Shown here: positions 5,033 through 54,152 of the stretch, in pieces
Layout of the letters: the number at the start of each line of letters is the position of its first letter
Numbering within the stretch: position 1 is the stretch's first letter
Source: a candidate division WOR-3 bacterium
GTDB taxonomy: Bacteria; Hydrothermota; UBA3073; JACQXS01; JAGMCI01
Length of the DNA: 64,000 bases
Assembly (NCBI GenBank): GCA_023129325.1
Contig: JAGMCI010000017.1
Coordinates: 13,252 to 77,251 of the forward strand
Reading direction: 5' to 3'
Notes under the pieces: model-generated
The model's input: the letters and a program-made list of their open reading frames with translations, nothing else
What the model was told of the DNA's origin: nothing
Database searches by the model: none
Position numbers and translations under genes: made by a program

Positions 5033-5060
5033 TTTACACCTCCTTTCCGTCATCCGTCTC

Positions 5061-5089
5061 CGTTAGCTAACGAATAACGAATAACGAAC
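5061..5089. repeat. CGTTAGCTAACG palindrome plus (CGAATAA)~2.7
   Basis: The same 12-nt palindrome forms the loop of hairpin 1 in leader copy A (8741-8756). Confidence 0.7.
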
Positions 5090-8679: not shown

Positions 8680-8680
8680 A

Positions 8681-8761
8681 TTCTACCTCCTTTTCCACCG
8701 TTCTTATTAGTTTATTTGCCAGAACGGTGAGAATCCCGCACCCGTTAGCTAACGGGTGCGG
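8681..8761 (-). repeat. two-hairpin leader element plus SD, copy A (diverged), upstream of the S8 protease gene
   Basis: Sense: CCGCACCCGTTAGCTAACGGGTGCGG...CACCGTTCT-loop-AGAACGGTG-GAAAAGGAGGT-ATG. Confidence 0.8.
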
Positions 8762-8766
8762 AGTAA

Positions 8767-11550: not shown

Positions 11551-11562
11551 ATTTACCTCCTT

Positions 11563-11581
11563 TACAGGCTGGAAGCCTGTA
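11563..11581. repeat. 8-bp hairpin immediately 5-prime of the SD of the 8767..11550 gene
   Basis: TACAGGCT-gga-AGCCTGTA followed (sense strand) by AAGGAGGT. Confidence 0.7.
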
Positions 11582-11595
11582 CCACCAGTAAGTTA

Positions 11596-12645: not shown

Positions 12646-12653
12646 ATTGCCTC

Positions 12654-14408: not shown

Positions 14409-14420
14409 TTTATCCTCCTA

Positions 14421-14512
14421 TTTGCATTGTTAATTGCTAATTGTTAAATGTTTTATGTTCCCACTGCTTTTTGCATTTAACATTTCACATAAAACATTCC
14501 ACATCTCACATG
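14421..14512. repeat. intergenic heptamer arrays (GTTAATT/GCTAATT, then ACATNNN) with an internal inverted repeat
   Basis: GTTAATTGCTAATTGTTAA (19 nt) is identical to 22029-22047. AATGTTTTATGT / ACATAAAACATT form an inverted pair. Confidence 0.8.
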
Positions 14513-14513
14513 C

Positions 14514-17819: not shown

Positions 17820-17831
17820 CTTTCCTCCTGT

Positions 17832-20800
17832 TTAAAATTTAATTTCTATGCCAAAACGAATTATCCTTGGATTACTGTAATTTGTTGGGTCATTATAATA
17901 TCGTTCCCAATTAGCAAGGTCATCTAAATACATATCCCAACCACTTTTATAATTCTTGCCATGCCTTGCGTTATAATCTTCATACTGACTCTCATAATTT
18001 TCTTTTATCCATTTTGGTGGGTCTCCATTATCATCTGGTTTCCCAGTTCTTGAGTATATATCTACAACATTCTTTGTGTTAAGTAAATTCCTGACATCTG
18101 CAAAAAATCCAATATCAAGACCTCTGAATTTAAATCCTTTATCAATTCTTAAGTCAATATTGCTTATGGCGGGCATTCGTTTTGAGCCAACTTCTTGGGG
18201 CCTGCCCTTTGAATCAGTTGGCGTGTAAGGAGCCCCTGACATAAATACAAATTGAAGGTTAGCATTTAAATTTGATAGAGGCTGTATCTTCAGGGCAAAT
18301 GGTCCCCATTTCTCTGGAATGTTAAAATTTAATCCAGTCTTAATCGTATGAGTTATGTCAAACTCAAGTGGGTATTCCTTTTTTGGTAGAGATATCCCTG
18401 TGTTCATATACCTGTAATAATACTCTCTTGACGAAGAGCCAGTGCCTTTTGCATCCTGGTATGAATATGATATCGTGCCTGATAAAAATCTTCTCGCCCT
18501 TTTTGTAAATATCACATCTATGCCCTTGACTGTTGCAAAATCTTGTAGCTGGTAAATTGTGTATGGAGCAAGTTTGCCCTTGAATATAGTGCGCTTCTCA
18601 CGAGTCGAAAGAAGTGTCTTGACATCTTTAAAATAAGCCGAAATCTCACCAGCCATGTCCGGAGTAAATGCATACCTGAACCCTCCCTCATACATAATCT
18701 CCTTTTGTGGGGGAAGATTCGGATTCCCGATTATCGGAAGTCCATTTGTTATATCAGCATCTAAATTTTGATAAATGTCTGCAAAATTTAATGGTTGGAA
18801 AAAATGACCATAATTTGCATACATTACAGATTTATCAGTCATCGCATAAGAAATGCCAAATCTTGGTGAAAATTGAATCTTTGCCTCTGCTTCTGCCTGA
18901 CCAGCAGATAATGAATCTAAATTAATATAAAAATCAGATTTCGGGTTAAAGTAATCATATCTTAAACCAGCCTTTAAAACCATATCTTCATATTCAATCT
19001 TGTCTGAAAGATATGCTGATGCTGTAAGTGGCTTCTTATCATAATGGTCCATATACGGATTCTTATTTACAAATTGAAGATATGTGAGGTCAAGATCATG
19101 TTTCTCAATATCAGCACCTGCCTTAATCTCATTGTATTTATTTACCTGGGAAATGAGATGAAAACTTGCAGAAAGTCGGGTCGTGTTCCTATCATGCCAC
19201 ATAGGATAGAAATAATAGCAAAATCTCCCAAATTCGTCCCTGTTATATCTTGTCATATACAACCCTCCCGATGGTTCTATTGAATCTTCTGGGAAATCCG
19301 TATTAATATACTTCCTAACATCGTTAATGTATTTGTCAAGACTAAATGTATGATAATATATATATAAAGTCTCCCCATCTTCCACTCCCGTATATACAAG
19401 TTTGTCTCCGCCAGGCACAGAACCTCCCTTTAAATAAGTCCCCGTTTGATAATATCTGTAATTCAAGGCATCAACAATTTCGTTGAAATCTGTCTCGTCT
19501 CCCCATTCCCATTCCCCTGTCGATGAGTTCCATTGTCCTAAATGTCGCACATTCTCATAATACCACATCCATGCCCTGTCTTCCGACCATCCCTCCTCCC
19601 ATGTCCCGTATTCAGGATTATACCAGCCAGAATCCCTTGCCACTGCTACCCAGGATAACCTCGTTCCAATTTCCTTGAAATCATTATAATCCTTACCATC
19701 CTGAGAGCTATACTTATGATAAGTGTTAAATCTCCCGATATTTAATGTGTAAAAAGTCTTCGATGACACAGAATGCGTTAGCTTTAAATTGATTTGTGAG
19801 TTCCCTCGCTGATACAGAGGTAATTCATCTATCCATTTTCCTCTTGAATATGAATGCCAGTACCCATGATACCTTCTATATGCATAATTACTTGATAAAG
19901 TTGCCTTAAATGCATTACTCAATCTCCACGCTAATTTCAATGTCCCTTTCCCTTCTATCCCATCGCTGTGCGGAAGATAAGAATCATACCCCCTGAGACC
20001 CCCAGAGAGGAAAAAACTACTCCTCTTAAGATAGGGAATAGGCCCACCCAGTGTAATGCTTCCATCATTAACCCCAAAATTATATCCCTGGTTAAATAAT
20101 TTACCCTGTTTATACAAATTAGAACTCTTCTTGAAAATATTATCCGTCGTGTATTTTATTCCACCACTATACTTTGTCCCCCCTTCCCTCGTCACCACAT
20201 TTACAACCCCAGACATAGCCCTCCCATACTCAGCATCAAATCCACCCGAAATTATAAGCATCTCCGAAATCGCATTGTTGTCAAGAATAGCCCCAGAAGT
20301 CCCATAAACAGGGTCAGTTGTGTTGATACCATCAACAATGTATACAACCTCATCTGACCTTCCACCTCTAATATGTAATCCACCCGAACTACCACGCCCA
20401 GTCTCAACCGAGCCCGCTTGCAAAGCAACTACATCCTCATAATTCGTTACAGGCATCTTAGATATCTCTTTCCCAGAAGTGCGCTTTGACGATGATGTTA
20501 CATCCCGCTCAATTATAGGCCTCTTGGCAGTCACTATAACCTCTTCTCCTTTTATTACAGTGGGCTCAAGTCTGAAGTTGACAGTGGTAGTCATATCAGT
20601 GGATACTTTTACATTCTTAACTTTCACAGCCTTGTAACCAATCATAGTAGCCTTTACTGTATAAATACCTACAGGAACATTAACAATAAAAAAATCTCCT
20701 AATTTATCCGTTGCTGCTCCCATAGTCGTTCCCTCAATAATGACATTAACAAAAGGAAGTGGCTCTCTTGTCCCTGTATCAATAACTTTCCCCGCAATCT

Positions 20801-20912
20801 TGCCCGTTATCCCTGCAAATAAAGCAGTAGGCAGTAGGCAGTAAGTAGTAAGTAGTAAGAAAATTGAAAATTGAAAATTGAAAATTGAAAATTTATATAA
20901 TTTATTACGCAT
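17832..20912 (-). CDS. TonB-dependent receptor with N-terminal carboxypeptidase-regulatory-like domain (SusC-like architecture)
   Basis: Start moved to ATG 20912 (AGGAGGT upstream); the 21 upstream codons of the track ORF lie in a repeat element. GKVIDTGTREPLPFVNVIIEGT...GIYTVKATMIGY (CarbopepD_reg-like). Plug GGLHIRGGRSDEVVYIVDGINTTDP. C-terminal ...RIIRFGIEIKF. Confidence 0.85.
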   Translation of the reverse strand: MRNKLYKFSIFNFQFSIFLLLTTYCLLPTALFAGITGKIAGKVIDTGTREPLPFVNVIIEGTTMGAATDKLGDFFIVNVPVGIYTVKATMIGYKAVKVKNVKVSTDMTTTVNFRLEPTVIKGEEVIVTAKRPIIERDVTSSSKRTSGKEISKMPVTNYEDVVALQAGSVETGRGSSGGLHIRGGRSDEVVYIVDGINTTDPVYGTSGAILDNNAISEMLIISGGFDAEYGRAMSGVVNVVTREGGTKYSGGIKYTTDNIFKKSSNLYKQGKLFNQGYNFGVNDGSITLGGPIPYLKRSSFFLSGGLRGYDSYLPHSDGIEGKGTLKLAWRLSNAFKATLSSNYAYRRYHGYWHSYSRGKWIDELPLYQRGNSQINLKLTHSVSSKTFYTLNIGRFNTYHKYSSQDGKDYNDFKEIGTRLSWVAVARDSGWYNPEYGTWEEGWSEDRAWMWYYENVRHLGQWNSSTGEWEWGDETDFNEIVDALNYRYYQTGTYLKGGSVPGGDKLVYTGVEDGETLYIYYHTFSLDKYINDVRKYINTDFPEDSIEPSGGLYMTRYNRDEFGRFCYYFYPMWHDRNTTRLSASFHLISQVNKYNEIKAGADIEKHDLDLTYLQFVNKNPYMDHYDKKPLTASAYLSDKIEYEDMVLKAGLRYDYFNPKSDFYINLDSLSAGQAEAEAKIQFSPRFGISYAMTDKSVMYANYGHFFQPLNFADIYQNLDADITNGLPIIGNPNLPPQKEIMYEGGFRYAFTPDMAGEISAYFKDVKTLLSTREKRTIFKGKLAPYTIYQLQDFATVKGIDVIFTKRARRFLSGTISYSYQDAKGTGSSSREYYYRYMNTGISLPKKEYPLEFDITHTIKTGLNFNIPEKWGPFALKIQPLSNLNANLQFVFMSGAPYTPTDSKGRPQEVGSKRMPAISNIDLRIDKGFKFRGLDIGFFADVRNLLNTKNVVDIYSRTGKPDDNGDPPKWIKENYESQYEDYNARHGKNYKSGWDMYLDDLANWERYYNDPTNYSNPRIIRFGIEIKF
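20824..20893 (-). repeat. ten heptamers (5x GYAGTAR, then 5x GAAAATT) encoding the TBDR signal peptide
   Basis: It encodes KFSIFNFQFSIFLLLTTYCLLPTA. Confidence 0.9.
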
Positions 20913-20990
20913 CTTTACCTCCTGCCGTCCGTTCTTGTAAACTTGTTTACTCAGAACGGCGAGCATCCCGCACATAAATTATGTGCGGGA
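20913..20990 (-). repeat. two-hairpin leader element plus SD, copy B, upstream of the TonB-dependent receptor gene
   Basis: Sense: TCCCGCACATAATTTATGTGCGGGA-TGCTCG-CCGTTCT-loop-AGAACGG-ACGGCAGGAGGT-ATG. Confidence 0.85.
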
Positions 20991-21105: not shown

Positions 21106-21116
21106 TGGTTAATATG

Positions 21117-21217: not shown

Positions 21218-21270
21218 GCATTGGGTGACGAAAGCCGTAACCGAACTACGAAACGGGCTTCCTCACCTAT
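21213..21270. repeat. modular GGTGACGAAAGCCGTAACCGAACTACGAAACGGGCTTCCTCACC element
   Basis: It shares CCGTAACCGAACTACGAAACGGGCTTCCTCACCTAT with 22968..23028. Confidence 0.85.
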
Positions 21271-21283
21271 AACCTTTTAATTT

Positions 21284-21378
21284 CCCACTTCTAACTTCCC
21301 CACTTCTAACTTCCCACTTCTCCACTTCTAACTTCCCACTTCCCACTTCTCCACTTCCTACTTCTCCACTTCCCACTT
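21284..21378. repeat. ~13-unit degenerate heptamer array (CYNACTT, ACTTC family) directly after the tonB stop
   Basis: CCCACTT CTAACTT CCCCACTT CTAACTT CCCACTT CTCCACTT .... Confidence 0.9.
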
Positions 21379-21978
21379 CTATTCTTTAAGTCTAAATCTC
21401 ACTGGCTGATGAACTTTTACGCATACCGGTCTATCCCTTTGTTGGGCAGGTGAAAATTTCCATTTCCTTGCTGCCCTCATAGCCGCTTGGTCACATAATT
21501 CATTTAAAGATTGTAAAACCTTGACATTTATAACTCTTCCACTCGTGTCTATTATAAGTTCTAAGTAAACAGTGCCCTCAATCTCAGCTTTCCTCGCTAA
21601 CTCCGGATATTCTGGCTCTACATAAAGCTTAAGTTGTGGCTTGACTTCAACTGCCCAAAACTCATAAACCTCCGGAGTAGTGAGCTTTGGAGGTCGCTTC
21701 TCAAAACCAAAATCAGTCCTGTCAATAGTAGATGCTTCTATTTCTTTTTCACTCTCCGCAGCAACTGGCATCTTTGGCTTTGGAGGAGGAGGGGGTTCCT
21801 TTAATTGTTGCATCTGGGGTGGAAGTTGTATGGCTCGTACAACTGCATCAACTTTTGGCTCCCATTTCCTGGGTCTCGTTTTGGGAATAAATAAACAAGC
21901 TAAAATGCAGGCAATAATGGCTATGAGGAAAGAAAGTTTATTATGAAATGGTAACCGCTCCTTTAAATCATTATTCAT
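21379..21978 (-). CDS. tonB: energy transducer TonB
   Basis: TM anchor, Pro-rich PPQMQQLKEPPPPPKPKMP and C-terminal YPELARKAEIEGTVYLELIIDTSGRVINVKVLQS...ARKWKFSPA. Start set to ATG 21978 because the 14 upstream codons are encoded by a GTAGGGGC repeat copy. Confidence 0.75.
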   Translation of the reverse strand: MNNDLKERLPFHNKLSFLIAIIACILACLFIPKTRPRKWEPKVDAVVRAIQLPPQMQQLKEPPPPPKPKMPVAAESEKEIEASTIDRTDFGFEKRPPKLTTPEVYEFWAVEVKPQLKLYVEPEYPELARKAEIEGTVYLELIIDTSGRVINVKVLQSLNELCDQAAMRAARKWKFSPAQQRDRPVCVKVHQPVRFRLKE

Positions 21979-23696: not shown

Positions 23697-24530
23697 TTAA
23701 AAAATGTCAAGTCTTTTTTTAAAAAAATTCCACTCTTTTGTTGAATACTTCTTTAGTAATTTATCTGTAAGCTCTCTTTCCTCATTTGTAAAAGTTCCTT
23801 CAATAATTTTTATCCCGCTTGCTTTAATTCCTTGCTTTAAAGCTATTGTGATTTCCTTGAGCTTGAAGTCACGACCTAAAATTTCTGAAAGACAGGATGT
23901 AGAGCGTCCGTCAACTGATGGATAGGATACGAAATTTGGGGGTGAGATTGGTATAGTTCCTTGTTGAAGGATTGTTCCATTAGCTCTCCTTTGGGCACTT
24001 CCGAGTATCTTTTTTCCATTGACTTGAAGTTCATATCTCATAAAAGAGCTAAAACAAACTGGAATCCGTTCATAGTGATTGGTAGTTCTCACTATCTGTG
24101 TCTGCCTGCTCCGCTCCGACAAGCGAAGCGGGACGGAGCCGGCGAGGCAGGCATCAATATTTAGAGTCTTTAGCCCAAGGGCAAAAATAAGGCTTACCTT
24201 TTTATAACTCTCAAACACAGAGCCTCCGAAAGTTGGATTTGTTTCATTAGTTACGAGTGAGTAAGTGAGGTCGCCATTGTGTACCACTGCTCTGCCTCCA
24301 GTAATTCTGCGTATAATAGGAAACCCATACTTCTTAAGATTCTTTATGTCCCGAATAGATTGCGAGTACCCTATCGTGATAGCAGGTGGCGAAAAAGTAT
24401 AAAATCTTAAAGTAGAATCGTATCCGGCAGTACACAAATTGTTAGATTGTGCTTTCCTGAATAATGCTTCATCTAATGCCATATTATAGAATCCATCTCT
24501 TGCCCAAGTATTTATTAGTCTAAGAATCAT
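23697..24530 (-). CDS. lipoate-protein ligase / octanoyltransferase family protein (BPL/LPL catalytic domain)
   Basis: RRITGGRAVVHNGDLTYSLV and GKKILGSAQRRANGTILQQGTI match my memory of LplA/LipM-type domains. The gene carries an in-frame GC-rich repeat (LAGSVPLRLSERSRQTQ). Confidence 0.65.
   Translation of the reverse strand: MILRLINTWARDGFYNMALDEALFRKAQSNNLCTAGYDSTLRFYTFSPPAITIGYSQSIRDIKNLKKYGFPIIRRITGGRAVVHNGDLTYSLVTNETNPTFGGSVFESYKKVSLIFALGLKTLNIDACLAGSVPLRLSERSRQTQIVRTTNHYERIPVCFSSFMRYELQVNGKKILGSAQRRANGTILQQGTIPISPPNFVSYPSVDGRSTSCLSEILGRDFKLKEITIALKQGIKASGIKIIEGTFTNEERELTDKLLKKYSTKEWNFFKKRLDIF
24102..24152. repeat. CCGCTCCGACAAGCGAAGCGGGACGG-family copy, in frame in the lipoate ligase-like gene
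   Basis: Core at 24111-24138 with CTGCC/GGCAG flanks. Read antisense it gives LAGSVPLRLSERSRQ. Confidence 0.85.
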
Positions 24531-30806: not shown

Positions 30807-31862
30807 GTGTTTTTTGTAATACTTAGTATTTCTACACTCCCCGTGCGAGCAAGATGTGAATTTAAGTCTCAGTCGGAGTTGATTGATAGTCCAACAGCGC
30901 ATGTTTCTGATGATTGGTTTGCTCTTGGAATGACCTTTTCTATTACAACTAAAGATGACCCTCACTGGGCTGTTGGTAATGCCTATTTGAAAGTCCAGAT
31001 TCCTGGGAAATTATTCCTTGGATTGTCAATTTTTAATCTTAGAGAAGCCTTGGTAGCATTTGATGCTGGATGGAAGGTAAATAAGGAAACTCAAAATATG
31101 CCAGCTATTATGTTGGGATGTTTATACCTTTCTCCTTATCGCTGGATTTCTCCAGTTGGTCATGATAGTACTGTCGGCTGGGCAGATGACCAAACTTATG
31201 ATACGAAAAGGAATTCAGAACAATTTTCTGCTTTTGTTGTTGCTACAAAAGATTTTGGACCTTATGGACTTTATAATGTTGGAATAGGAAGGGGTTCGCT
31301 GGTTGGCTATGGACCAAGGTCTCATCTCTTTAATACTGATATGTTTATGAGAGACCATCATAACGACGCTGTAGGAATTATTTGGGGTGGCGAGGTAAAT
31401 ATTAGAAAAAATATATTTGGAGTGCTTGACTTTGATGGAAGGGATTTTAATGTTGGAATTAAGATTAAAGGTAAATGGTATCAAATAGGAATCGCCGCAG
31501 CTAAACTTGAACACCGATTAGGAGGTTCTCCAATACTTTATCCTCGTTTTGCAGCAGGGTTTATAATAAATTCACATATATTAAAAAAATTGCCTCCCAA
31601 AATTCCAAAAATTGGAGCTGTTGCCGGAGTAGTACGGGATAAAAATACCCTGCAACCGTTAGTTGCTAAACTCGTGTTTACCGAAACTACCCTTCTTCCA
31701 GTAGCCACTGACAGTAACGGAAAATATACTGTTTCTATTATGCCTGGAACTTACAGGGTGAGGGCTGTTGTTTCAGGATATTATTGGCTTGAGAAAAAAA
31801 TTTATGTCGCTCCTCAAATGACAACAATATGTAACTTTGAATTAACGCCAAAGCCAAAATGA
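30807..31862 (+). CDS. putative outer-membrane protein with C-terminal carboxypeptidase-regulatory-like domain
   Basis: Track ORF 30681..31862. The first ~40 codons are repeat DNA, so I propose the in-frame GTG at 30807 (FFVILSISTLPVRA signal-like). C-terminus GVVRDKNTLQPLVAKLVF...GKYTVSIMPGTYRVRAVVSGY. The start is uncertain. Confidence 0.45.
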   Translation: MFFVILSISTLPVRARCEFKSQSELIDSPTAHVSDDWFALGMTFSITTKDDPHWAVGNAYLKVQIPGKLFLGLSIFNLREALVAFDAGWKVNKETQNMPAIMLGCLYLSPYRWISPVGHDSTVGWADDQTYDTKRNSEQFSAFVVATKDFGPYGLYNVGIGRGSLVGYGPRSHLFNTDMFMRDHHNDAVGIIWGGEVNIRKNIFGVLDFDGRDFNVGIKIKGKWYQIGIAAAKLEHRLGGSPILYPRFAAGFIINSHILKKLPPKIPKIGAVAGVVRDKNTLQPLVAKLVFTETTLLPVATDSNGKYTVSIMPGTYRVRAVVSGYYWLEKKIYVAPQMTTICNFELTPKPK

Positions 31863-31911
31863 AAAATCAAAAATTAAAATGTAAAAATCAAAATCACAAA
31901 TTAAAAATTGA
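31863..31911. repeat. A-rich heptamer array (AAAATCA AAAATTA AAATGTA ...)
   Basis: AAAATTAAAATG[C/T]AAAAATCAAAAT recurs at 37868-37895. A related run lies at 44064-44097. Confidence 0.8.
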
Positions 31912-31926
31912 AGTAAAAGGTTATAG

Positions 31927-31951
31927 GTAGGGGCAACCCTTGCGGTTGCCC
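31927..31951. repeat. GTAGGGGC-family element (variant)
   Basis: GTAGGGGCAACCCTTGCGGTTGCCC. Confidence 0.8.
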
Positions 31952-31957
31952 AAAATA

Positions 31958-32027
31958 AGTAGTTCGGTTACGGCTTTCGTCACCCAAAGCCGATTGACGA
32001 AACGGGTCTCGTCACCGTAACCATTTA
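31958..32027. repeat. same modular family, inverted and module-shuffled, upstream of leuS
   Basis: AGTAGTTCGGTTACGGCTTTCGTCACCC...CCGATTGACGAAACGGGTCTCGTCACCGTAACC. Confidence 0.8.
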
Positions 32028-32042
32028 TCCGCCTCAGGCGGA
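32028..32042. repeat. 15-nt palindrome TCCGCCTNAGGCGGA
   Basis: TCCGCCTCAGGCGGA, 12 nt before the leuS ATG. Confidence 0.9.
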
Positions 32043-32053
32043 TTAACCAAAAG

Positions 32054-34732
32054 ATGACTTATAATTTTAAAGATATTGAGGCAAGACAACAAAAGTATTG
32101 GGACCATATTGGGCTCCCTGCTCCTCCTAAAGTTCCACACAAAAAATATTATATCTTAGAGATGTATCCTTATCCTTCAGGTGACCTTCATATGGGGCAT
32201 CTTAAAAATTATGTGATAGGAGATACATTAACAAGATATAAACTAATGTGTGGATATGATATACTTCATCCTATAGGCTGGGATGCCTTTGGTCTACCTG
32301 CAGAAGAGTGTGCGATTGAGCAAGGCGTGGACCCGGAAAAATGGACTCTCCATAATATTCAAGTTTCTCGCTCAACATTCCGCCTTATGGGTATGTTATA
32401 TGATTGGGATAGAGAGATTACTACTTGCCTTCCAGATTATTATAAATGGACACAATGGTTATTTCTAAAATTATATGAACATGGCTTGGTATATCGTAAA
32501 AAAGCGTTCCAAAATTGGTGCCCTCACTGTCAGACAGTGCTTGCAAATGAACAAGTTGAGGCTGGAAGATGCTGGAGATGCGAAACCCCAGTGAGGAGAA
32601 AAGAACTAAAACAATGGTTCTTTAAAATTACCCAGTATGCTGAAAGATTGTTGACAGATATAAATAAACTCAACGGCTGGCCTGAACGAGTTAAGACACT
32701 GCAAAAAAATTGGATTGGTAAATCTGAAGGCTTGGAAATAGATTTCTCTTTACCTGCCCCGCTCCGACAAGCGAAGCGGGACGGAGATGGCAAGAAGATA
32801 CCAATATTTACTACAAGACCTGATACAATTTATGGAGTAACATTTATAGCAATTGCTCCAGAAAACGAACTTGCAAAGAGCCTTGGTAGAAACTCAAATT
32901 CAAAAAAAGAAGTCTTAAAATACATTGAAAATTCACTAAAACGAACAGAGATTGAAAGAACTTCATCAACCCGAGTTAAAGATGGAGTGAATACAGGCAA
33001 ATATGTGATTAATCCATTATCAGGTAAAAAAGCCGAAATATGGATTGCTGATTATGTCCTACCCTCCTATGGAACTGGCGTTGTAATGGGTGTCCCTGCT
33101 CACGACCAGAGAGATTTTGAATTTGCAAAGAAATACAAGATACCAATTGAAGTTGTTATTCAACCTAAAGGAGTAGGGGCGCATAGCGGCTCGACTGAGG
33201 CTTCCGTTGAGTCAGCCGAAACGCTCGCGACTCGACTGAGGCTTCCGTTGAGTCAGCCGAAACGCTCGTCGAAGCCCGAAGTCAATACGCCCCTACAAAA
33301 TATAAAACAGGCTTATGCCGAACCAGGAGTGATGATAAATTCGGGTCAGTTTAACGGTCTGGATTCAGTCAAAGGAGTAGAAAAAATAATTAAATTTGTG
33401 ACCCAAAACGGAATTGGAAGACGAAAAGTAAATTATAGGTTAAGAGATTGGTTAATATCACGCCAAAGATATTGGGGAGCACCTATTCCAATGATTCATT
33501 GTAAAAAGTGTGGAGTTGTTCCTGTTCCCTTTCATAACCTTCCAGTATACCTTCCAAAACAGGGAATCGATTTCACTCCAAAGGGAAAGTCTCCTCTTTC
33601 TTCAGTCCCTGATTTTATCAACACTAAGTGCCCAAAGTGCGGAAACCCTGCAACCCGAGACCCCGATACTATGGATACCTTTGTGGACTCTGCTTGGTAT
33701 GAGATTAGATACTTAGACCCCAAAAATGAACAAGCTCTTGTCTCAAAAAAGGAAGCCGAAAAATGGCTCCCAGTTGATCAATATATTGGAGGAGTGGAAT
33801 ATGCAACTACCCATCTCCTTTATTTTCGGTTTATCACAAAGTTTCTCTATGATATTGGAGTCCTCCCAGTAGATGAGCCAGTTGAAAATCTCTTTAATCA
33901 GGGGTTGATAAAAGATGAAACCGGGCAAAAGATGTCGAAATCAAAAGGCAATGCTGTCCCAGTAGGCCCATTTCTTAAAGAATGGGGGGCAGATATAGCA
34001 AGACTTACCATTTTATTCCTGGGACCTCCTTCTAAAGATGGAATATGGTCAGTAAAGGGCATACAAGGAGTAAGTAGATTTCTAAATAGAGTATATAAGC
34101 TTGTAAATGAAAATGCTTCTGTAGGGGCGTATGGCGACTCGACTGAGGCTTCCGTTGAGTCAGCCGAAACGCTCGCGACTCGACTGAGGCTTCCGTTGAG
34201 TCAGCCGAAACGCTCGTCGAAGTCCGAAGTCAATATGCCCCTACAAGAGGAGGAAAATTTTAAAAATACACCACTTTATAGGAAGCTTAATCTTACAATA
34301 TCAAAAGTGGAAGAGGACCTCAACTCTTTTGGATATAATACTGCTATAGCATCGCTTATGGAATTTACAAATGAACTTTATAAAACTCAAGAAAGAGGTT
34401 CCATTTTTGGGTACTCTTTAGGAGTGCTAATAAAACTACTCGCCCCATTTGCTCCCCATCTGTCTGAAGAGCTATGGCATGAGCTCGCCCATACGGGTTC
34501 AGTATTTAAATCCTGCTGGCCTGGTTGGAAAGAGGTAGAGGCAAAAAAAGTCACATTAGTGATTGAAATTAATGGAAAGCCAAGAGCTACAGTTGAGATT
34601 CCTTATGATTTAGGAGAGGAAGAAGTGAAAAAAGTTTGCTTGCATAATACTCGTATAGAAGGAAGAATTAAAGGAAAAAATATTAAAAAAATTATATTTG
34701 TTCAAAACAAGCTTATTAATTTTGTAATGTAA
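32054..34732 (+). CDS. leuS: leucine--tRNA ligase
   Basis: HIGH motif PYPSGDLHMGHLKNY, KMSKS motif QKMSKSKGN, and TTRPDTIYGVTF at the editing-domain entry. The ORF is intact despite three in-frame repeat insertions. Confidence 0.95.
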   Translation: MTYNFKDIEARQQKYWDHIGLPAPPKVPHKKYYILEMYPYPSGDLHMGHLKNYVIGDTLTRYKLMCGYDILHPIGWDAFGLPAEECAIEQGVDPEKWTLHNIQVSRSTFRLMGMLYDWDREITTCLPDYYKWTQWLFLKLYEHGLVYRKKAFQNWCPHCQTVLANEQVEAGRCWRCETPVRRKELKQWFFKITQYAERLLTDINKLNGWPERVKTLQKNWIGKSEGLEIDFSLPAPLRQAKRDGDGKKIPIFTTRPDTIYGVTFIAIAPENELAKSLGRNSNSKKEVLKYIENSLKRTEIERTSSTRVKDGVNTGKYVINPLSGKKAEIWIADYVLPSYGTGVVMGVPAHDQRDFEFAKKYKIPIEVVIQPKGVGAHSGSTEASVESAETLATRLRLPLSQPKRSSKPEVNTPLQNIKQAYAEPGVMINSGQFNGLDSVKGVEKIIKFVTQNGIGRRKVNYRLRDWLISRQRYWGAPIPMIHCKKCGVVPVPFHNLPVYLPKQGIDFTPKGKSPLSSVPDFINTKCPKCGNPATRDPDTMDTFVDSAWYEIRYLDPKNEQALVSKKEAEKWLPVDQYIGGVEYATTHLLYFRFITKFLYDIGVLPVDEPVENLFNQGLIKDETGQKMSKSKGNAVPVGPFLKEWGADIARLTILFLGPPSKDGIWSVKGIQGVSRFLNRVYKLVNENASVGAYGDSTEASVESAETLATRLRLPLSQPKRSSKSEVNMPLQEEENFKNTPLYRKLNLTISKVEEDLNSFGYNTAIASLMEFTNELYKTQERGSIFGYSLGVLIKLLAPFAPHLSEELWHELAHTGSVFKSCWPGWKEVEAKKVTLVIEINGKPRATVEIPYDLGEEEVKKVCLHNTRIEGRIKGKNIKKIIFVQNKLINFVM
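32751..32794. repeat. same family, in frame in leuS
   Basis: TACCTGCCCCGCTCCGACAAGCGAAGCGGGACGGAG encodes LPAPLRQAKRDGDGK. Confidence 0.85.
33173..33296 (+). repeat. 124-nt GTAGGGGCG...CGCCCCTAC element in frame in leuS (copy 1)
   Basis: Inverted termini GTAGGGGCGCAT / AATACGCCCCTAC. Internal 41-nt unit (CTCGACTGAGGCTTCCGTTGAGTCAGCCGAAACGCTCG plus 3 nt) present twice. Confidence 0.9.
34121..34244 (+). repeat. 124-nt GTAGGGGCG...GCCCCTAC element in frame in leuS (copy 2)
   Basis: By my alignment it differs from copy 1 at 5 of 124 positions. Same orientation and same reading frame. Confidence 0.9.
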
Positions 34733-34771
34733 ATAAAGGAAACGGATTGATATTTAATATTTAATTTTATT

Positions 34772-35851
34772 ATGGAGTTTGTGGTAAATAAGATTGAAGA
34801 TTTAGATAAAAATTTACCCTCCAATGTGAAAAGAGTTAGAATAAACCTTCCTAATCTTGACTCAGCTGATATTGTTAATTTTGTTTCTAAGTACTTATCT
34901 TGTCTGTCTGCCCGACGTCCTGCAGGCGGGCAGGCGGGCAGGCGGGCAGGCGGGCGAATTAAAGCAAATATATCTGAACAGTCCCGACTTCAGTCGGGAT
35001 TAAGAGAGGACAGGACAATTCAGGAAGTGTGGTTAAAAAGTGATAAGTTTCCTATACTTTTAAAAAATGGGTATTTAATATTCTTCTCCAAAGGCGGGTC
35101 CCTGTCCGACAGATGGCTCGCCTCGCTGAAGCTTTGGCGAAGCGGGCAGGCGGGCGCCTCTGGCGGAAAAAACCACTCCAATGAGGTTAAGACTGGTGGG
35201 AAAAGAGGATTAGATATTTTTATAAGTAGTTTGATGCTTGGCATTTCTTTTCCTATTTTGCTTGTGAGTTCTATTCTTATAAAACTTACTTCTAAGGGGC
35301 CAGTCTTGTTCCGTCAATCCCGGATTGGCGTTAATGGAAAGTTATTTAATTTTTATAAATTTAGGACGATGCATTGTTCTAATCCATTAACCGATAGAGA
35401 TATACATCGCAATTATATAAAAAAATCTATACTTGGTAGCAATTCAGGACAATCTGTCTCTCAAACTCTTGATAAAACCAGAGCGGCAAACAAGAGAGTT
35501 TACAAATTGACCAATGACCCCAGAATAACCCCCGTTGGGAGATGGCTGAGAAAACTATCAATAGATGAACTTCCACAATTGATAAATGTCTTAAAAGGTG
35601 ATATGAGTCTCATAGGACCTCGGCCTCCAATACCTTACGAAGTTAAATTATACAGTGATTGGCACTATGTTAGGCTAATTGCCCGTCCTGGCATAACCGG
35701 GCTCTGGCAAGTTATGGGGAGAAGTCTTATTCCCTTTAATCAGATGGTATTACTTGACTTTTACTATGCAGTAAATCAATCATTTTGGTTAGACTTGAGA
35801 ATATTTTTACGCACTATCCCAATGGTCTTGTCATTGAAAGGAGCGTATTAA
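34772..35851 (+). CDS. bacterial sugar transferase (polyprenyl-phosphate sugar-1-phosphate transferase family) with repeat-rich N-terminal extension
   Basis: KRGLDIFISSLMLGISFPILLVSSILIKLTSKGPVLFRQSRIG...FYKFRTM...DPRITPVGRWLRKLSIDELPQLINVLKGDMSLIGPRPP. Confidence 0.8.
   Translation: MEFVVNKIEDLDKNLPSNVKRVRINLPNLDSADIVNFVSKYLSCLSARRPAGGQAGRRAGGRIKANISEQSRLQSGLREDRTIQEVWLKSDKFPILLKNGYLIFFSKGGSLSDRWLASLKLWRSGQAGASGGKNHSNEVKTGGKRGLDIFISSLMLGISFPILLVSSILIKLTSKGPVLFRQSRIGVNGKLFNFYKFRTMHCSNPLTDRDIHRNYIKKSILGSNSGQSVSQTLDKTRAANKRVYKLTNDPRITPVGRWLRKLSIDELPQLINVLKGDMSLIGPRPPIPYEVKLYSDWHYVRLIARPGITGLWQVMGRSLIPFNQMVLLDFYYAVNQSFWLDLRIFLRTIPMVLSLKGAY
34908..34954. repeat. CTGCCCGACGTCCTGCAGGCGGG element followed by (CAGGCGGG)x4 perfect octamer tandem, in frame in the sugar transferase
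   Basis: Four perfect octamer units at 34923-34954. It encodes SARRPAGGQAGRRAGGR. Confidence 0.85.
34982..34999. repeat. 7-bp-stem hairpin in frame in the sugar transferase
   Basis: TCCCGAC-TTCA-GTCGGGA. Confidence 0.6.
35117..35156. repeat. GCCCGCTTCGCC / CAGCGAGGCGAG-family element in frame in the sugar transferase
   Basis: CTCGCCTCGCTGAAGCTTTGGCGAAGCGGGCAGGCGGGCG encodes ASLKLWRSGQAGA. Confidence 0.8.
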
Positions 35852-36523
35852 ATGGCAGTGAGGATTGGAAAATCAGTAAAAATATATCCGGGAGTGAAAT
35901 TAGGGAACGGTTGTGTAATTTATGATTTTGTTGTTCTTGGTTTTCCACCACGAAATAAAATGGTAGGGGCGTATAGCGATACGTCCCTACAGATTGGGGA
36001 AAATGCTATTATACGACCATTTACCACTATATATGCGGGTAACCGTATAGGTGACAACTTCCAGAGCGGACAAGGAACAAGTATTAGAGAGGATAATATA
36101 ATTGGCAATAATGTGAGCGTAGGTAGCAATACTACACTTGAATTCGGAAACCGTATTGGTTCAGGGACAAGAATTCACTCTTTGTGCTTCCTTGAGCTTG
36201 TTAATGTAGGGGAAAATGTTTTTATTGGTCCAGGTACAGTTTTTCTTGATGACCCTCATCCTATGAATTGTCCCAGATATCGTGAATGTCTGGGAGGTGC
36301 AAAAGTTAAGAAACTTGTTAAGATTGGTGGAGGATGTATTATCCTTCCAGGAATTACTATTGGAGAAGCTGCTCTTATAGGAGCTGGAACTTGTGTGACT
36401 AAAGATGTTCCAAAAGGAGTAGTTGTTGTTGGACATCCAGGCAAGTTTGTTAAGAAGATTGAAGAACTTAAGTGCTATCCAGGGTTTTTTAAACGTCCTT
36501 ACCTTTGGAAGCCATATATATAA
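35852..36523 (+). CDS. left-handed beta-helix (hexapeptide repeat) sugar N-acetyltransferase
   Basis: Imperfect hexapeptide repeats run through most of the protein (IGDNFQSGQGTSIREDNIIGNNVSVGSNTTLE...). The ATG directly follows the upstream stop. Confidence 0.75.
   Translation: MAVRIGKSVKIYPGVKLGNGCVIYDFVVLGFPPRNKMVGAYSDTSLQIGENAIIRPFTTIYAGNRIGDNFQSGQGTSIREDNIIGNNVSVGSNTTLEFGNRIGSGTRIHSLCFLELVNVGENVFIGPGTVFLDDPHPMNCPRYRECLGGAKVKKLVKIGGGCIILPGITIGEAALIGAGTCVTKDVPKGVVVVGHPGKFVKKIEELKCYPGFFKRPYLWKPYI
35963..35990. repeat. minimal GTAGGGGC element (termini only) in frame in the acetyltransferase gene
   Basis: GTAGGGGCGTAT-AGCG-ATACGTCCCTAC encodes VGAYSDTSLQ. Confidence 0.8.
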
Positions 36524-36556: not shown

Positions 36557-36622
36557 TACCTGCCCCGCTCCGACAAGCGAAGCGGGACGGAGACGGCAGG
36601 CAGGTATTTTTTTCTTTTTTTT
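36557..36622 (+). terminator. Rho-independent terminator built from a CCGCTCCGACAAGCGAAGCGGGACGG-family repeat copy
   Basis: Outer stem TACCTGCC / GGCAGGTA encloses the repeat core and is followed by TTTTTTTCTTTTTTTT. It lies 34 nt after the acetyltransferase stop. Confidence 0.7.
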
Positions 36623-37855: not shown

Positions 37856-37863
37856 TTTTTAAT

Positions 37864-37996
37864 ATCAAAAATTAAAATGCAAAAATCAAAATTATTGTAG
37901 GCACGATTTCAAATCGCACAGGCAATTTATGATTAAGATTAAAAAAGTTTTGCTTTTTAATATGTGATTTTGATATTTGATTTTTGATATTTAATA
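37864..37996. repeat. inverted ATCAAAA / TTTTGAT heptamer arrays flanking the TGTAGGCAC hairpin
   Basis: Left array at 37864-37891 and right array at 37948-37996. Confidence 0.75.
37896..37924. repeat. TGTAGGCAC-family hairpin (short)
   Basis: TGTAGGCACGATTTCAAATCGCACAGGCA, flanked by inverted ATCAAAA / TTTTGAT arrays. Confidence 0.8.
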
Positions 37997-40208: not shown

Positions 40209-40809
40209 TTCCTGCCCGACGGACGATAGGCGGGAGAGACTCAGCGAAAGCCTGGCTCCTCTTTATAGCCTGTTTTAAGATAGTAGCCGAACCCTTTAGA
40301 GTTCGTGATTTATGTCGTTTAGCCTCATCTTTAATCAGCCGTATAAAGTTTAAAGCAATAAGTGTAGTTTCGCCTAATTTAAGTTTGCGATGTGTGAGCC
40401 AATCCAGTGTATGGGCTAACTCGAGTGAGCCAGTGGATGCAATAAAGATAAGCGAAAAGGCAGTGGCTAATAAAGCTCGGGTTCCAAGAATCAGACTTTT
40501 ATATAGTCCCTCATAACTTATCCCGCCAAGCAAAGCGGGACGGATTCCCGGGACAACTATTTCCCCCTTGATAGCCCAGAGTGGAAAACCGTAAATTATC
40601 AGCAGGAATGGTAAAAACCATACAAATCGGTGTATAAAAATCTTCTTATTTTTTAGCAAAATGAATTCTGTTAAAAAGATGACAAAAAGAATAGCAAAGA
40701 CCTGCAAGTTTTTAGCAATTCCGCAGCTAACAAGGAGTAATATAGTAAGAATAAGCTTTAATTTTGCCCCGTCAGATAGTAAACATCTAACGGGGCGGGG
40801 CATAAGCAT
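40195..40809 (-). CDS. EcfT/CbiQ-like energy-coupling-factor transporter transmembrane protein (short, possibly degenerate)
   Basis: Multi-TM protein with LIALNFIRLIKDEAKRHKSR, resembling the ECF-T coupling-helix region. ecfT directly upstream of truA is a gene order I recall from Firmicutes. No ecfA is nearby. The C-terminus is encoded by a repeat. Confidence 0.4.
   Translation of the reverse strand: MLMPRPVRCLLSDGAKLKLILTILLLVSCGIAKNLQVFAILFVIFLTEFILLKNKKIFIHRFVWFLPFLLIIYGFPLWAIKGEIVVPGIRPALLGGISYEGLYKSLILGTRALLATAFSLIFIASTGSLELAHTLDWLTHRKLKLGETTLIALNFIRLIKDEAKRHKSRTLKGSATILKQAIKRSQAFAESLPPIVRRAGNAKH
40211..40235. repeat. related CCTGCCCGAC...GGCGGGA element at the ecfT-like C-terminus / truA start overlap
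   Basis: CCTGCCCGACGGACGATAGGCGGGA encodes PPIVRRAGN. Confidence 0.6.
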
Positions 40810-40851
40810 ATCAAAAATTAAATATCAAATATCAATTTGAATTTCTTCTAC

Positions 40852-43343: not shown

Positions 43344-44068
43344 TAGTTACCCACCTTCCTGCTGTCTCCGTCCCGCTTCGCTTGTCGGAGCAGGGGGCAA
43401 GGCAGGTTTGTTACTGACAGGTTTTTGATTCTACGCTCTACTTCTTTAGAAATTATGGCACGAGCTTCTCTGGGTAACTTCGCTTGCCTGCCTGCAGACA
43501 GGTCTCTGAGAAGAGAGTCATAAATAACAGGTTTCCCGAATCGAACACATACTTTTTCTTTCCGAATAAATTGTTTAATGAGTGGAGTATTAGTCCCTTT
43601 TACAAGAGTTGGTACCACAGGCACCTCGCATCTTAAAGCCAACCAGGCTACACCGGGATGAAATTCTAAAAAATGTCCTGATAGACTGCGTGTGCCCTCA
43701 GGGAAAAACATAATAGCTAAACCATTTTTTAATAATTTCTCTGTGTGCTTGAGCGCCGTTTTGTTCAGTCCTTTTGTGTTAACTTCATAAGCATTAAAAG
43801 CCTTGATTAACCAAGTATAAAATTTATTGATCACAAATAGTTCTTGTTTAGTAAAAAGATAACACTCCCTGAACCACACAGCTGCCCCAACCAATGGGGG
43901 GTCAAAGTTTGATAAATGGTTAGGTGCGATAATGACACCTCCTTTTTTAGGAATGTTTTCCCATCCCTCAATTTTAAAGCCAAATAATAATTTCCAGGTC
44001 CAATAAATTATCCTTATTGCTATCCTGTATCTTAACTTCATCACACCAAATTTAGAATTAAATATCAA
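43343..44068 (-). CDS. plsC: 1-acyl-sn-glycerol-3-phosphate acyltransferase
   Basis: HX4D motif APNHLSNFDPP and FPEGTRS. The start could instead be the internal MKLRYRI. The C-terminal ~25 aa are repeat-encoded. Confidence 0.8.
   Translation of the reverse strand: MIFNSKFGVMKLRYRIAIRIIYWTWKLLFGFKIEGWENIPKKGGVIIAPNHLSNFDPPLVGAAVWFRECYLFTKQELFVINKFYTWLIKAFNAYEVNTKGLNKTALKHTEKLLKNGLAIMFFPEGTRSLSGHFLEFHPGVAWLALRCEVPVVPTLVKGTNTPLIKQFIRKEKVCVRFGKPVIYDSLLRDLSAGRQAKLPREARAIISKEVERRIKNLSVTNLPCPLLRQAKRDGDSRKVGN
43358..43406. repeat. same family, forming the C-terminus of plsC
   Basis: The reverse complement of the core lies at 43366-43391. It encodes PCPLLRQAKRDGDSRKVGN*. Confidence 0.85.
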
Positions 44069-44224
44069 AAATCAAAATTACATATTAAAATGCAAAAATT
44101 ACAACAACAGACTGAAGACCGAAGACATAAGACTGACGACAAAAAAGTCTACGGTCTCTGGTCTTAAGTCTATAGCCTTTCTTTTTAATTTTTGATTTGT
44201 CATTTTGATATTTGATTTTTAATG
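44064..44224. repeat. nested inverted heptamer arrays between cmk and plsC
   Basis: The outer pair is ATCAAAA (44064-97) / TTTTGAT (44183-224; it encodes the cmk C-terminus). The inner pair is AGACNNA x4 (44109-40) / NNNGTCT (44147-71), separated by AAAAAA. Confidence 0.8.
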
Positions 44225-46779: not shown

Positions 46780-47079
46780 TTATTTTGTCTTAGGCGGATT
46801 ACTTTTTAATTTAACATAAGTTAATTTAAGATTGCTAATCATACCTTCAAGTAATTCTTGTTCTTCTTTATTCAGGTTGCCTTTTGTCTTTTTCTTTAAC
46901 ATATCAAGAGTATCAATGCTATACTTAGCTAACTCAAGATTAGGCTCTACTTTGTCAGTGAGTGGATTTTTGACAAGCCCAAGATGTTGCGATGCTATGG
47001 TTGTGAGAAAAAGAATAAGTGATAAAAAAGATGCTTCTGGTGGTTCACCACGACCTTCACCACGGAGTGGTTTTTCCAT
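46780..47079 (-). CDS. DUF1844-like small protein
   Basis: FLSLILFLTTIASQHLGLVKNP...NLELAKYSIDTLDMLKKKTKGNLNKEEQELLE matches my memory of DUF1844. The N-terminal EKPLRGEGRGEPP is repeat-encoded. Confidence 0.55.
   Translation of the reverse strand: MEKPLRGEGRGEPPEASFLSLILFLTTIASQHLGLVKNPLTDKVEPNLELAKYSIDTLDMLKKKTKGNLNKEEQELLEGMISNLKLTYVKLKSNPPKTK
47040..47072. repeat. same 31-33-nt element, opposite orientation, in frame at the DUF1844 N-terminus
   Basis: It encodes KPLRGEGRGEP. Confidence 0.85.
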
Positions 47080-48416
47080 TATACCTCCTGCCGTCCGTTC
47101 TTATCAACTCGACTTGTTGATTTAGAACAGCGAGCATCCCGCACCGTATGGTGCGGGAATTCATTCTTAGTTGTATCTATTAGTAAAGATTTTACTCCAC
47201 AAGGTTTGCCATTATTGATGTAAATACGCGGGACCCTTGGACATATATTGGTAAGTATTTCATAACTAATAGTTCCTGCAAGTTTAGCAACTTCATCGCA
47301 ACTTATACCATTGCCAATAAGAGTAACTTTGTCACCTATTTTTACATCAGGAATATGAGTTACATCAACCATAGTAAGGTCCATACACACAGCCCCAACA
47401 ACTTTAGCCCGTTTACTCTTTATAACAACAATTCCCTTATTTGAAAGGCTCCGTGGATAGCCATCTCCATAACCAACAGATAAGGTGGCAATTTTGCTTG
47501 ATTCATTAGTAATGTAGGTTCTGCCATAAGAAATTGGAGTCCCCGGAGGAACTAACTTTAACTGGCAAACCCGGGTATAAAGATTTAAAATTGGTTTTAC
47601 CTCAATTGAGCTTGTGTGCACTGATGGATATAAGCCATAGAGCAAAAGTCCTGGTCTTATCATATTAAAATAAGAATCGGGAAATCCAAGTATAGCCGCA
47701 GAGTTCGCAGTATGAACCAAAGGCACTTGAATTCCCTTATTTTGTAATTCCTGAATTAAAGCATTAAATTTTTCAAGTTGATTAAGTGTAAAATTTTTAT
47801 CTCCCCCGCCTGCAGGATGTCGGGCAGGTCTTTCTGTTTCAGCAAAATGAGTAAACAGACCGTCTAACTTAAGATTCTTTAATTCAAGCACCTTAAGGAT
47901 AAAATCTATGGCTTCAGTGTAAGGGGTCCCAGTCCTGCCCATTCCAGTATCAACCTCAATATTGATTTTGATAATTTTACCCGCTTCTTTGGCACGCTTA
48001 TTAAGTTCAATAGCAAAAGGATAATATGTAACTGTTGGTATAAAGTCATTAGATACCTGCCCGCTCGCCTCGCTCTCGCTCCGGCGAAGCGGGCTGCTCT
48101 GCTTTGGCAGGCGGGTAAGTTTTGGCACATCGCTTACTAAAATGGGTGAAAGAATTACTATTGGTAAACCTATTTCGGCTAACTCACAAGCCTCATCAAT
48201 TGAGGCTACTCCCAACATATCAATTCCTTCCTCTTTTAATGTTTTTGATATTTCTCGTGCCCCATGTCCATAAGCGGCAGCTTTAACAGCTGCTAAAATC
48301 CTCACCTTACTATTTGATTTGTTAATAGTTTGATAGCTTGAAAGCCTTTCTTTTAGAGCTTTTACATTAGACTTTAACTTATCTAAGTCCACTACTGCCC
48401 AAGTTCTGCCATCCAT
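47079..48416 (-). CDS. alr: alanine racemase
   Basis: PLP-lysine motif AAVKAAAYGHG, HFA and YGDGYPR. Two in-frame repeat insertions, plus a C-terminal extension read through the downstream leader element. Confidence 0.85.
   Translation of the reverse strand: MDGRTWAVVDLDKLKSNVKALKERLSSYQTINKSNSKVRILAAVKAAAYGHGAREISKTLKEEGIDMLGVASIDEACELAEIGLPIVILSPILVSDVPKLTRLPKQSSPLRRSESEASGQVSNDFIPTVTYYPFAIELNKRAKEAGKIIKINIEVDTGMGRTGTPYTEAIDFILKVLELKNLKLDGLFTHFAETERPARHPAGGGDKNFTLNQLEKFNALIQELQNKGIQVPLVHTANSAAILGFPDSYFNMIRPGLLLYGLYPSVHTSSIEVKPILNLYTRVCQLKLVPPGTPISYGRTYITNESSKIATLSVGYGDGYPRSLSNKGIVVIKSKRAKVVGAVCMDLTMVDVTHIPDVKIGDKVTLIGNGISCDEVAKLAGTISYEILTNICPRVPRIYINNGKPCGVKSLLIDTTKNEFPHHTVRDARCSKSTSRVDKNGRQEV
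47080..47158 (-). repeat. two-hairpin leader element plus SD, copy C, upstream of the DUF1844 gene (also read as the alr C-terminus)
   Basis: It shares ACCTCCTGCCGTCCGTTCTT and GCGAGCATCCCGCAC with copy B. The loops differ. Confidence 0.85.
47805..47827. repeat. reverse-complement copy of CTGCCCGACRTCCTGCAGGCGGG in frame in alr
   Basis: One mismatch to 34908-34930. It encodes RPARHPAGGG. Confidence 0.8.
48056..48115. repeat. same family, in frame in alr
   Basis: CCTGCCCGCTCGCCTCGCTCTCGCTCCGGCGAAGCGGGCTG...GGCAGGCGGG encodes LPKQSSPLRRSESEASGQV. Confidence 0.8.
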
Positions 48417-54119: not shown

Positions 54120-54152
54120 AACCACTCCGTGGTGAAGGTCGTGGTGAACCAC
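54120..54152. repeat. same element, intergenic (exbD to deacetylase)
   Basis: AACCACTCCGTGGTGAAGGTCGTGGTGAACCAC. Confidence 0.85.

Follow-up and report, generated by a model that had tools for sequence, protein, structure and literature searches.

Small GC-rich repeat elements probably inserted in frame at three sites of a leucyl-tRNA synthetase gene in a candidate division WOR-3 bacterium

How does an essential gene come to carry three pieces of GC-rich repeat DNA and still encode an intact enzyme? The question is raised by leuS, the sole leucyl-tRNA synthetase (LeuRS) gene in a stretch of 64,000 nucleotides (nt) from a candidate division WOR-3 bacterium (contig JAGMCI010000017.1 of assembly GCA_023129325.1, positions 13,252 to 77,251; hereafter, the window). 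An original prediction, made from the sequence alone, had called the leuS open reading frame (ORF) intact on account of its HMGH, KMSKS and TTRPDT motifs and had described three in-frame palindromic insertions within it, here named inserts A, B and C, that behave like Rickettsia palindromic elements (RPEs). ORF analysis and alignment of the product, LeuS, with the T. thermophilus LeuRS (E 1.6e-269) agree with the first claim, all three motifs being present, and an identical 892-residue protein from a candidate division WOR-3 bacterium is listed as leucine--tRNA ligase (contig DAOWLA010000007.1, 142,798 bp, of GCA_030643605.1). The GC content of the window is 35-41% throughout, and that of the inserted elements is 58-60%, compared with 37% in the remainder of leuS. 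The reading developed here, to which a probability of roughly 0.8 is assigned, is that the three segments are non-autonomous repeat elements that reside in frame in tolerant loops of the enzyme.

The evidence that the segments are insertions comes from a comparison with the 61 best LeuS matches, which are 54-63% identical to the query and, together with it, make up an alignment of 62 sequences. The columns of residues 234-242, the only 9 residues that insert A adds relative to homologues, are empty in all 61 homologues, and the columns of residues 375-403, 410-415 and 691-717 are occupied in at most one, three and two homologues, respectively. In the alignment with the solved T. thermophilus LeuRS, LeuS gains 9 residues ahead of TTRPDT; its residues 374-414 (41 in total) and 689-735 (47) find no partner, where the solved protein has 4 and 16 residues, respectively. 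Minus its inserts, LeuS would be ~800 residues long, and its nearest relatives measure 797-804 residues. Exact removal of the two long elements leaves ...QPKG|NIKQAY... at insert B and ...NENAS|EEENFK... at insert C, both of which fit the homologues. Combined, these comparisons support the prediction that all three segments are lineage-specific insertions; they are members of repeat families and are read in frame.

The DNA flanking inserts B and C shares nothing, and the element boundaries are identical; therefore, a discrete unit was copied and not a stretch of the gene. Segmental duplication within leuS was ruled out on these two observations, and contamination by adaptor or vector was ruled out on the frame, the phase, the boundaries and the continuation of the host gene on both sides. 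Placement of the elements into leuS by an assembler misled by shared repeats is extremely unlikely, even though the sequence belongs to a metagenome-assembled genome (MAG) and a Logan contig (L014) breaks exactly at another, 33-nt repeat: leuS continues in order and in frame on both sides of each insert, inserts B and C differ at five sites and therefore represent separate loci, the identical 892-residue product is found on three recorded contigs of 50-200 kb, and assemblers break at repeats but do not insert them.

Inserts B and C are copies of one composite element and are 96% identical. Their five differing positions are all transitions, every one of which alters an amino acid; no sign of constraint on the 42-residue peptide is apparent, five sites being too few for a test. 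Both copies and their five differences had been recognized previously with a length of 124 nt, but because 124 is no multiple of three, the frame-keeping shared unit is corrected to 126 nt (42 codons). The ends read GTAG...CTAC(AA) and form inverted arms of 9-12 bp of the type GTAGGGGCG / CGCCCCTAC (as patterns, GTAGGGGCG[C/T]AT and ATA[C/T]GCCCCTAC), the pairing of which verifies the inverted termini that had been proposed for both copies. The proposed internal 41-nt duplication is likewise present and tandem, and all four exact occurrences of its 38-nt unit in the window lie within insert B or C, with 0 expected from shuffled sequences. Folding of the whole element is modest (z -1.8 and -3.1) and the ends are the clearly paired part, such that the description of the long inserts as palindromic applies to their 9-12 bp ends and not to the remainder. 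Tryptic peptides that would derive from the inserts, as read from the sequence, include GVGAHSGSTEASVESAETLATR and LPLSQPK.

A minimal, 30-nt form of the long element resides in a nearby hexapeptide transferase gene (35963-35992). This hairpin consists of both long-element arms (15/16 and 11/12 matches) minus the ~98-nt interior, and the transferase loop that holds its translation is variable among solved homologues. Because the arms occur alone at this site, the long element is best described as a GTAG...CTAC hairpin with two tandem cores in its loop. The claim that the leuS elements recur elsewhere in the window was accordingly upheld for the shorter family of insert A, whereas the long element recurs only as these arms and not in full.

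The 126-nt element has stop codons in five of its six frames, and the sole open frame is the one that leuS uses; inserts B and C, as well as the 35963 hairpin, all begin at codon phase 0. Both long copies are read identically, as had been predicted, because only copies in phase and in one orientation survive in an essential gene. Within each copy the two 41-nt units are read in different frames (STEASVESAETLA and then TRLRLPLSQPKRS) because 41 = 3n+2; a long element in which the core was not duplicated would measure 85 nt and would break the frame. The core alone is open in four of six frames. These properties also bear on whether the finished protein lacks the inserts, through RNA excision, translational bypassing or protein splicing. 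Translational bypassing is known from T4 gene 60 and from the 'byp' elements of yeast mitochondria, the latter lineage providing a precedent for mobile GC-rich inserts that the ribosome bypasses, and the arms of the leuS elements would join the flanks in an mRNA hairpin. However, an open frame, a length of 3n and the double use of the only open frame would then be needless. The codons at which a ribosome would take off and land do not match (GGA..AAT at insert B, TCT..GAG at insert C), no Rfam family, whether an intron or another RNA, was found on 31800-35300 at E<=1, and no intein motifs are present in inserts that start with V, end with Q and span 42 residues. Intron, intein and translational bypass were each rejected on these grounds together with the codon phase, and removal or skipping of any kind is considered highly improbable.

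Insert A belongs to a separate family of 50-nt GC-rich palindromes with the ends TACCTGCC/GGCAGGTA. It had been identified correctly as a repeat-family copy at 32751-32794, and its span is now extended to 32751-32800, over which it is 92% identical to an intergenic copy at 36557-36606. The 21-nt centre of this family is found at five places in the window (24116, 32764, 36570, 40523 and, on the minus strand, 43368) where 0 are expected; three of these five copies lie inside ORFs, and both orientations occur. Unlike the long element, the short family is open in all six frames.

With respect to the enzyme, insert A lies at the N-terminal edge of the CP1 editing domain and insert C follows the helix ...RFLNRVYKLVNEN of the anticodon-binding domain in a stretch whose length varies among homologues, in agreement with the sites proposed earlier. 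Insert B, which had been placed after the editing domain, is inside it: residues 25-144 and 155-196 of the E. coli editing-domain construct 2ajg align to query residues 248-370 and 418-459, respectively, and A. aeolicus editing-domain constructs align around the insert likewise. An AlphaFold2 model built on the 62-sequence alignment (mean pLDDT 86, pTM 0.84) matches the T. thermophilus LeuRS with a TM-score of 0.81-0.82 and falls below pLDDT 50 only at residues 242-245, 376-386, 391-413 and 695-726, which correspond to the three inserts. The structure prediction that had been suggested as a check therefore returned a canonical LeuRS fold in which the inserts are the only low-confidence stretches. 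Separately from the inserts, the leucine-specific domain (~57 residues, 580-636 of the T. thermophilus LeuRS) is absent from LeuS and its closest relatives, the corresponding site being 33914-33931 (residues 621-626). Among the homologues, one from Stahlbacteria (P0025) has unrelated extra segments of its own at loops B and C, and another (P0094) has 'CRGSIHRIPPRRGLIN', which resembles a hairpin-encoded peptide, in the editing-domain region upstream of loop B.

Low model confidence is also relevant to the suggestion that these former repeats have been co-opted and are kept by selection, either as RNA-binding or interaction loops of LeuRS or as mRNA hairpins that tune expression. The retention of two copies in one essential gene, the basic second half of the 42-residue peptide (RLRLPLSQPKRSSK) and the weak helices predicted at residues 385-395 and 704-710 would be compatible with such a role. 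Nevertheless, co-option is judged unlikely given that the inserts fall below pLDDT 50, all five differences between the copies change an amino acid with no sign of constraint, the peptide was found in no other protein in a search of representative proteins, other genes read the same DNA in another frame or orientation, and direct 126-nt repeats 948 nt apart would be a deletion hazard instead of a benefit.

Repeats read in frame are not confined to leuS. Short-family copies are contained in an lplA-like gene (23697-24530, minus strand) and at the end of a plsC-like acyltransferase gene, and the alanine racemase gene alr (47079-48416, minus strand) has two GC-rich in-frame segments, at 47800-47830 and 48052-48115, opposite which the best solved alanine racemase homologue shows gaps (8 and 14 residues). 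Across the window, 19 of 23 short GC-rich islands are inside long ORFs. In-frame repeats are therefore a habit of this WOR-3 genome and not a peculiarity of leuS. This distribution speaks against a further alternative, namely that the present leuS is a decaying or redundant copy and that a clean copy elsewhere does the work. The examined sequence is 73 kb of the genome, which leaves room for a second gene, yet the ORF is intact over 892 codons, every column that is invariant across the 62 LeuS sequences is retained, and similar inserts in nearby housekeeping genes indicate a genome-wide habit rather than the decay of one gene; a redundant copy is thus very unlikely. The coordinates of leuS, its inserts and the related repeats are collected in Table 1.

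Table 1. Positions in the window of leuS, of its three inserts and their parts, and of related repeat copies.
Feature	Position	Strand	Remarks
leuS ORF, 892 residues, intact, carrier of three inserts	32054-34732	+	T. thermophilus LeuRS match; structural model
Insert A, full copy of the 50-nt GC-rich palindrome family, read as LPAPLRQAKRDGDGKK	32751-32800	+	92% to 36557-36606
Insert B, composite element of 126 nt encoding 42 residues (374-415), within the CP1 editing domain	33173-33298	+	
Left arm of insert B, GTAGGGGCGCAT	33173-33184	+	pairs with 33285-33296
Right arm of insert B, ATACGCCCCTAC	33285-33296	+	
Two tandem 41-nt core units, insert B	33190-33271	+	exact 38-mers 33190-33227, 33231-33268
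Insert C, second 126-nt copy, 42 residues (690-731), variable loop of the anticodon-binding domain	34121-34246	+	
Left arm of insert C, GTAGGGGCGTAT	34121-34132	+	pairs with 34233-34244
Right arm of insert C, ATATGCCCCTAC	34233-34244	+	
Two tandem 41-nt core units, insert C	34138-34219	+	exact 38-mers 34138-34175, 34179-34216
Minimal hairpin GTAGGGGCGTATAGCGATACGTCCCTACAG, codon phase 0 in a hexapeptide transferase gene	35963-35992	+	reads VGAYSDTSLQ
Intergenic reference copy of the 50-nt family, near-perfect palindrome	36557-36606	+	folding z -4.0
Short-family copy within the lplA-like gene, opposite orientation, read as ACLAGSVPLRLSERSRQ	24103-24152	+	
Short-family copy that encodes the C-terminal tail of the plsC-like acyltransferase (NLPCPLLRQAKRDGDSRKV), frame as in leuS	43353-43407	-	
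REP-like hairpin with a GTAG tag, 103 nt upstream of the leuS start	31927-31951	+	relatives 21116, 21988

The explanation that best accommodates these results is that the three leuS segments are copies of small, non-autonomous, GC-rich repeats, selfish DNA of the REP or MITE type, that would have landed in leuS and persisted since each keeps the frame and occupies a tolerant loop. The gene would most likely be transcribed and translated straight through, and the product would be an ordinary LeuRS to which three hydrophilic loops, probably disordered and 9, 42 and 42 residues long, are added; the inserts would be neutral, and the mobilizing enzyme would act in trans. The surface exposure of the insert loops is suggested by low model confidence and homology. 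Translation through the inserts is suggested by the open frame, the phase and the multiple-of-three length, none of which splicing or bypassing would call for. Several points weigh against this interpretation. The best insert-free LeuS match is only 63% identical, and because of this distance no recent empty site is available. A Pfam scan of 41 of the 47 long window ORFs revealed no transposase or RAYT (a tyrosine transposase of the IS200/IS605 type); the remaining six have ordinary Pfam annotations (TonB/ExbBD-type transport, polysaccharide export, oxidoreductase, CCA-adding enzyme, pseudouridine synthase, ribosomal protein S1 and LytB). No target-site duplication is present at the flanks of insert B (AAAGGA|...|AATATA) or insert C (GCTTCT|...|GAGGAG). 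The two copies in leuS are the only ones known of the full 126-nt element; no other was found in a further 9 kb of the contig on the right side, in species-representative genomes, in viral contigs or in plasmids. Lastly, the 42-residue peptide had no match among 1.84 billion representative proteins, a set in which cluster representatives can hide inserts. A word-indexed protein search misses the exact 42-residue self match that phmmer scores at 5e-33, and its negatives for short queries are untrustworthy.

In-frame palindromic repeats in housekeeping genes were first described as the RPEs of Rickettsia (Ogata et al. 2000, 2002, cited in PMC10969869 and PMC3733652). As RPEs are summarized in those two papers, the leuS elements resemble them in a size of 100-150 bp, inverted ends, in-frame residence in unrelated housekeeping genes, a conserved peptide, sites thought to be tolerated by the fold and the lack of a transposase of their own. 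In the present genome, the unrelated housekeeping genes so affected are leuS (three times), alr (twice) and the lplA-like and plsC-like genes. However, the short RPE-4 and RPE-6 are CGTC-tagged (PMC3733652) whereas the leuS elements have GTAG...CTAC, the WOR-3 host phylum is unrelated, and the long leuS element is a nested composite with a tandem core. By virtue of the tag and the host, the leuS elements are not RPEs; the RPE-like behavior that had been predicted is supported by insertion, repeat-family membership, frame and the low-confidence loops in a confident model.

A further comparison is offered by the REP elements surveyed by Di Nocera et al. 2013 (PMC3733652), who reported GTAG- and CGTC-tagged REPs inside ORFs in several phyla, three species with REP insertions in tRNA synthetase genes, individual genes hit twice and clusters encoding 43-82 residues. 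The novelty implied by the original prediction was thus overstated. In the REP/RAYT system, a tyrosine transposase recognizes single-stranded hairpins and leaves no duplication (PMC3733652). The leuS elements share with GTAG REPs and REPINs the tag, a short GC-rich stem-loop and copies within ORFs of known proteins, and a GTAG at one end of a ~20-40 bp GC-rich stem-loop was found in the hairpins at 21116, 21988, 31927 and 35963. The first three of these are classical GTAG hairpins in intergenic DNA, in which GTAG(G) is unpaired and precedes an 8-bp stem with a 5-nt loop; folding z values of -3.1 and -3.7 were obtained for the 31927 hairpin and its relatives. REP-like copies in the 64 kb number three arm copies and three GTAGGGGCA hairpins. 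On the other hand, the 126-nt copies keep the GTAG tag but are oversized for a GTAG REP, the GTAG of the leuS elements pairs with CTAC where the tag of REPs is unpaired, the loop holds a foreign core of ~98 nt, no RAYT was seen in the window ORFs scanned, and WOR-3 is not among the phyla in PMC3733652. By tag and hairpin, therefore, the leuS elements fit the GTAG REP superfamily, and not demonstrably by transposase; the tag points to REP/RAYT mobilization as a lead only.

Two other groups of elements were compared. The leuS elements resemble MITEs (ERIC, BOX, QMITE1 and the Anabaena MITEs; PMC10969869) in size, terminal inverted repeats, non-autonomy and occasional in-frame residence, and with ends of 9-12 bp and a length of 126 nt they have the terminal inverted repeats, the 70-300 bp span and the lack of coding capacity of their own that define MITEs. 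They differ in having no target-site duplication, and no parent insertion sequence with matching ends was found. PARCELs are similar in being coding DNA with dyad symmetry that is scattered over distant taxa, apparently by horizontal transfer, but they are tandem 25-residue domains in surface proteins and not single inserts in housekeeping enzymes. Overall, in-frame palindromic repeats in genes were known already, both as RPEs and as intragenic GTAG REPs; new here are the phylum, the nested composite whose tandem core restores the frame, the presence of three insertions in a single essential gene and a core that is present in more than one phylum.

This last point arose from a search with a core 22-mer, which matched ten metagenome contigs. 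The match in one of them (L004, 60% GC) is probably due to chance, nothing else being shared, and seven of the ten are from a single assembly, SDBU01 (50-56% GC). The SDBU01 contigs have a single core of 49-55 nt with the consensus GGCTCG[G/A]CTGAGGCTTCCGTTGAGTCAGCCGAAACGCTCGCCGA[A/G]GTCGGA, and the best copy (L009, 999-1040) is identical to the leuS copies at 42 of 42 nt. In L009, the core forms an in-frame insertion of 16-17 residues (...IG[STEASVESAETLAEVGS]GRAG...) in a Chloroflexota-like class IV aminotransferase, and this insertion is absent from all ten of the closest homologues (three named Dehalococcoidia, two Chloroflexota). Additionally, the core is inserted in frame in a sugar-phosphate nucleotidyltransferase (L006) and is in frame within a 216-residue ORF (L010). 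In L008, an rve-type transposase gene is interrupted out of frame, between ...YHPQT and NGKIERYHRTIKG..., by a 49-nt copy at 1780-1830, and L007 (1440-1520) and L011 (560-1180) hold arrays of degenerate, GC-rich relatives of the core, including GGCTCGACCGAGC three times, mostly outside called genes and, in L011, between them. A search of species-representative genomes with a core 24-mer gave one partial match, in a Bacteroidota-labelled MAG; this MAG, a groundwater contig and a marine-sediment contig contain identical core pieces of 27-29 nt. Neither the core nor the short family had a match in viral contigs or plasmids. The idea that the core contains a conserved hairpin was rejected, as the 5' half varies among copies without compensation and the fold is no better than that of shuffled sequences.

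Judged by these occurrences, the core behaves like an insertion element whose range covers two distant phyla at the least, and the copies that persist in genes appear to have been sorted by selection. A tentative extension, regarded as possible but doubtful, is that a coding-tolerant mini-element of ~50 nt with an invariant core of 28-42 nt moves between distant phyla, hits housekeeping genes and can nest in host GTAG hairpins; its copies would be those in WOR-3, Dehalococcoidia-like Chloroflexota, the Bacteroidota-labelled MAG and the groundwater and marine-sediment contigs. If true, this would imply a broad-host-range mobilizing machinery, or a templated insertion route, that is undescribed. 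The presence of a common core in a WOR-3 genome of 37% GC and in Chloroflexota contigs of ~53% GC is in any case a lead to the traffic of tiny elements between phyla, and it is the most promising thread of this study. More broadly, the results extend protein-coding palindromic repeats to an uncultured AT-rich phylum and provide an unusually clean case, one essential enzyme with three hits in which boundaries, phase and the single usable frame can be read from the sequence, of selection filtering selfish DNA in coding regions. The two direct repeats inside leuS would be natural markers with which gain, loss and deletion could be followed in populations. For annotation, the locus is a warning that odd low-complexity loops in MAG proteins can be genuine repeat insertions.

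Further repeats were noted in the window. In alr, the C-terminal tail past the Pfam domain overlaps another repeat family (8709, 20941, 47112 and 53018), as an island at 47112-47157. Downstream of leuS, the first ~140 codons of an annotated Bac_transf gene (34772-35200) contain three GC-rich islands, among them a tandem GGCGGGCA run at 34921-34950 and a copy of a GCTCGCC...GGCGAAGCGGGC family that is also found at 48063 and 49542; the Bac_transf Pfam domain begins at residue 144, so that translation may in fact start downstream of the annotated codon. Repeats of AT-rich sequence with a ~14-nt period (AAATCAAAAATTAAAATG...) occupy intergenic positions at 31850-31906 (just upstream of leuS), 37862-37904, 40808-40835 and 44048-44117, and a tract of CCACTTC-type repeats is present at 21260-21391. 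A 33-nt repeat occurs at 54120-54152 and 47040-47072 in inverted orientation with 100% identity, and the independent Logan contig L014 (SRR13892596, same organism) ends exactly at this repeat; therefore, such repeats fragment short-read assemblies. The minus strand of 1745-20975 is devoted to very large genes, led by three secreted proteins with type IX secretion sorting domains and continuing with a Toluene_X-like outer-membrane protein, an NHL/PKD repeat protein, a 1101-residue protein with no Pfam match and a TonB-dependent receptor, after which a TonB/ExbBD cluster follows.

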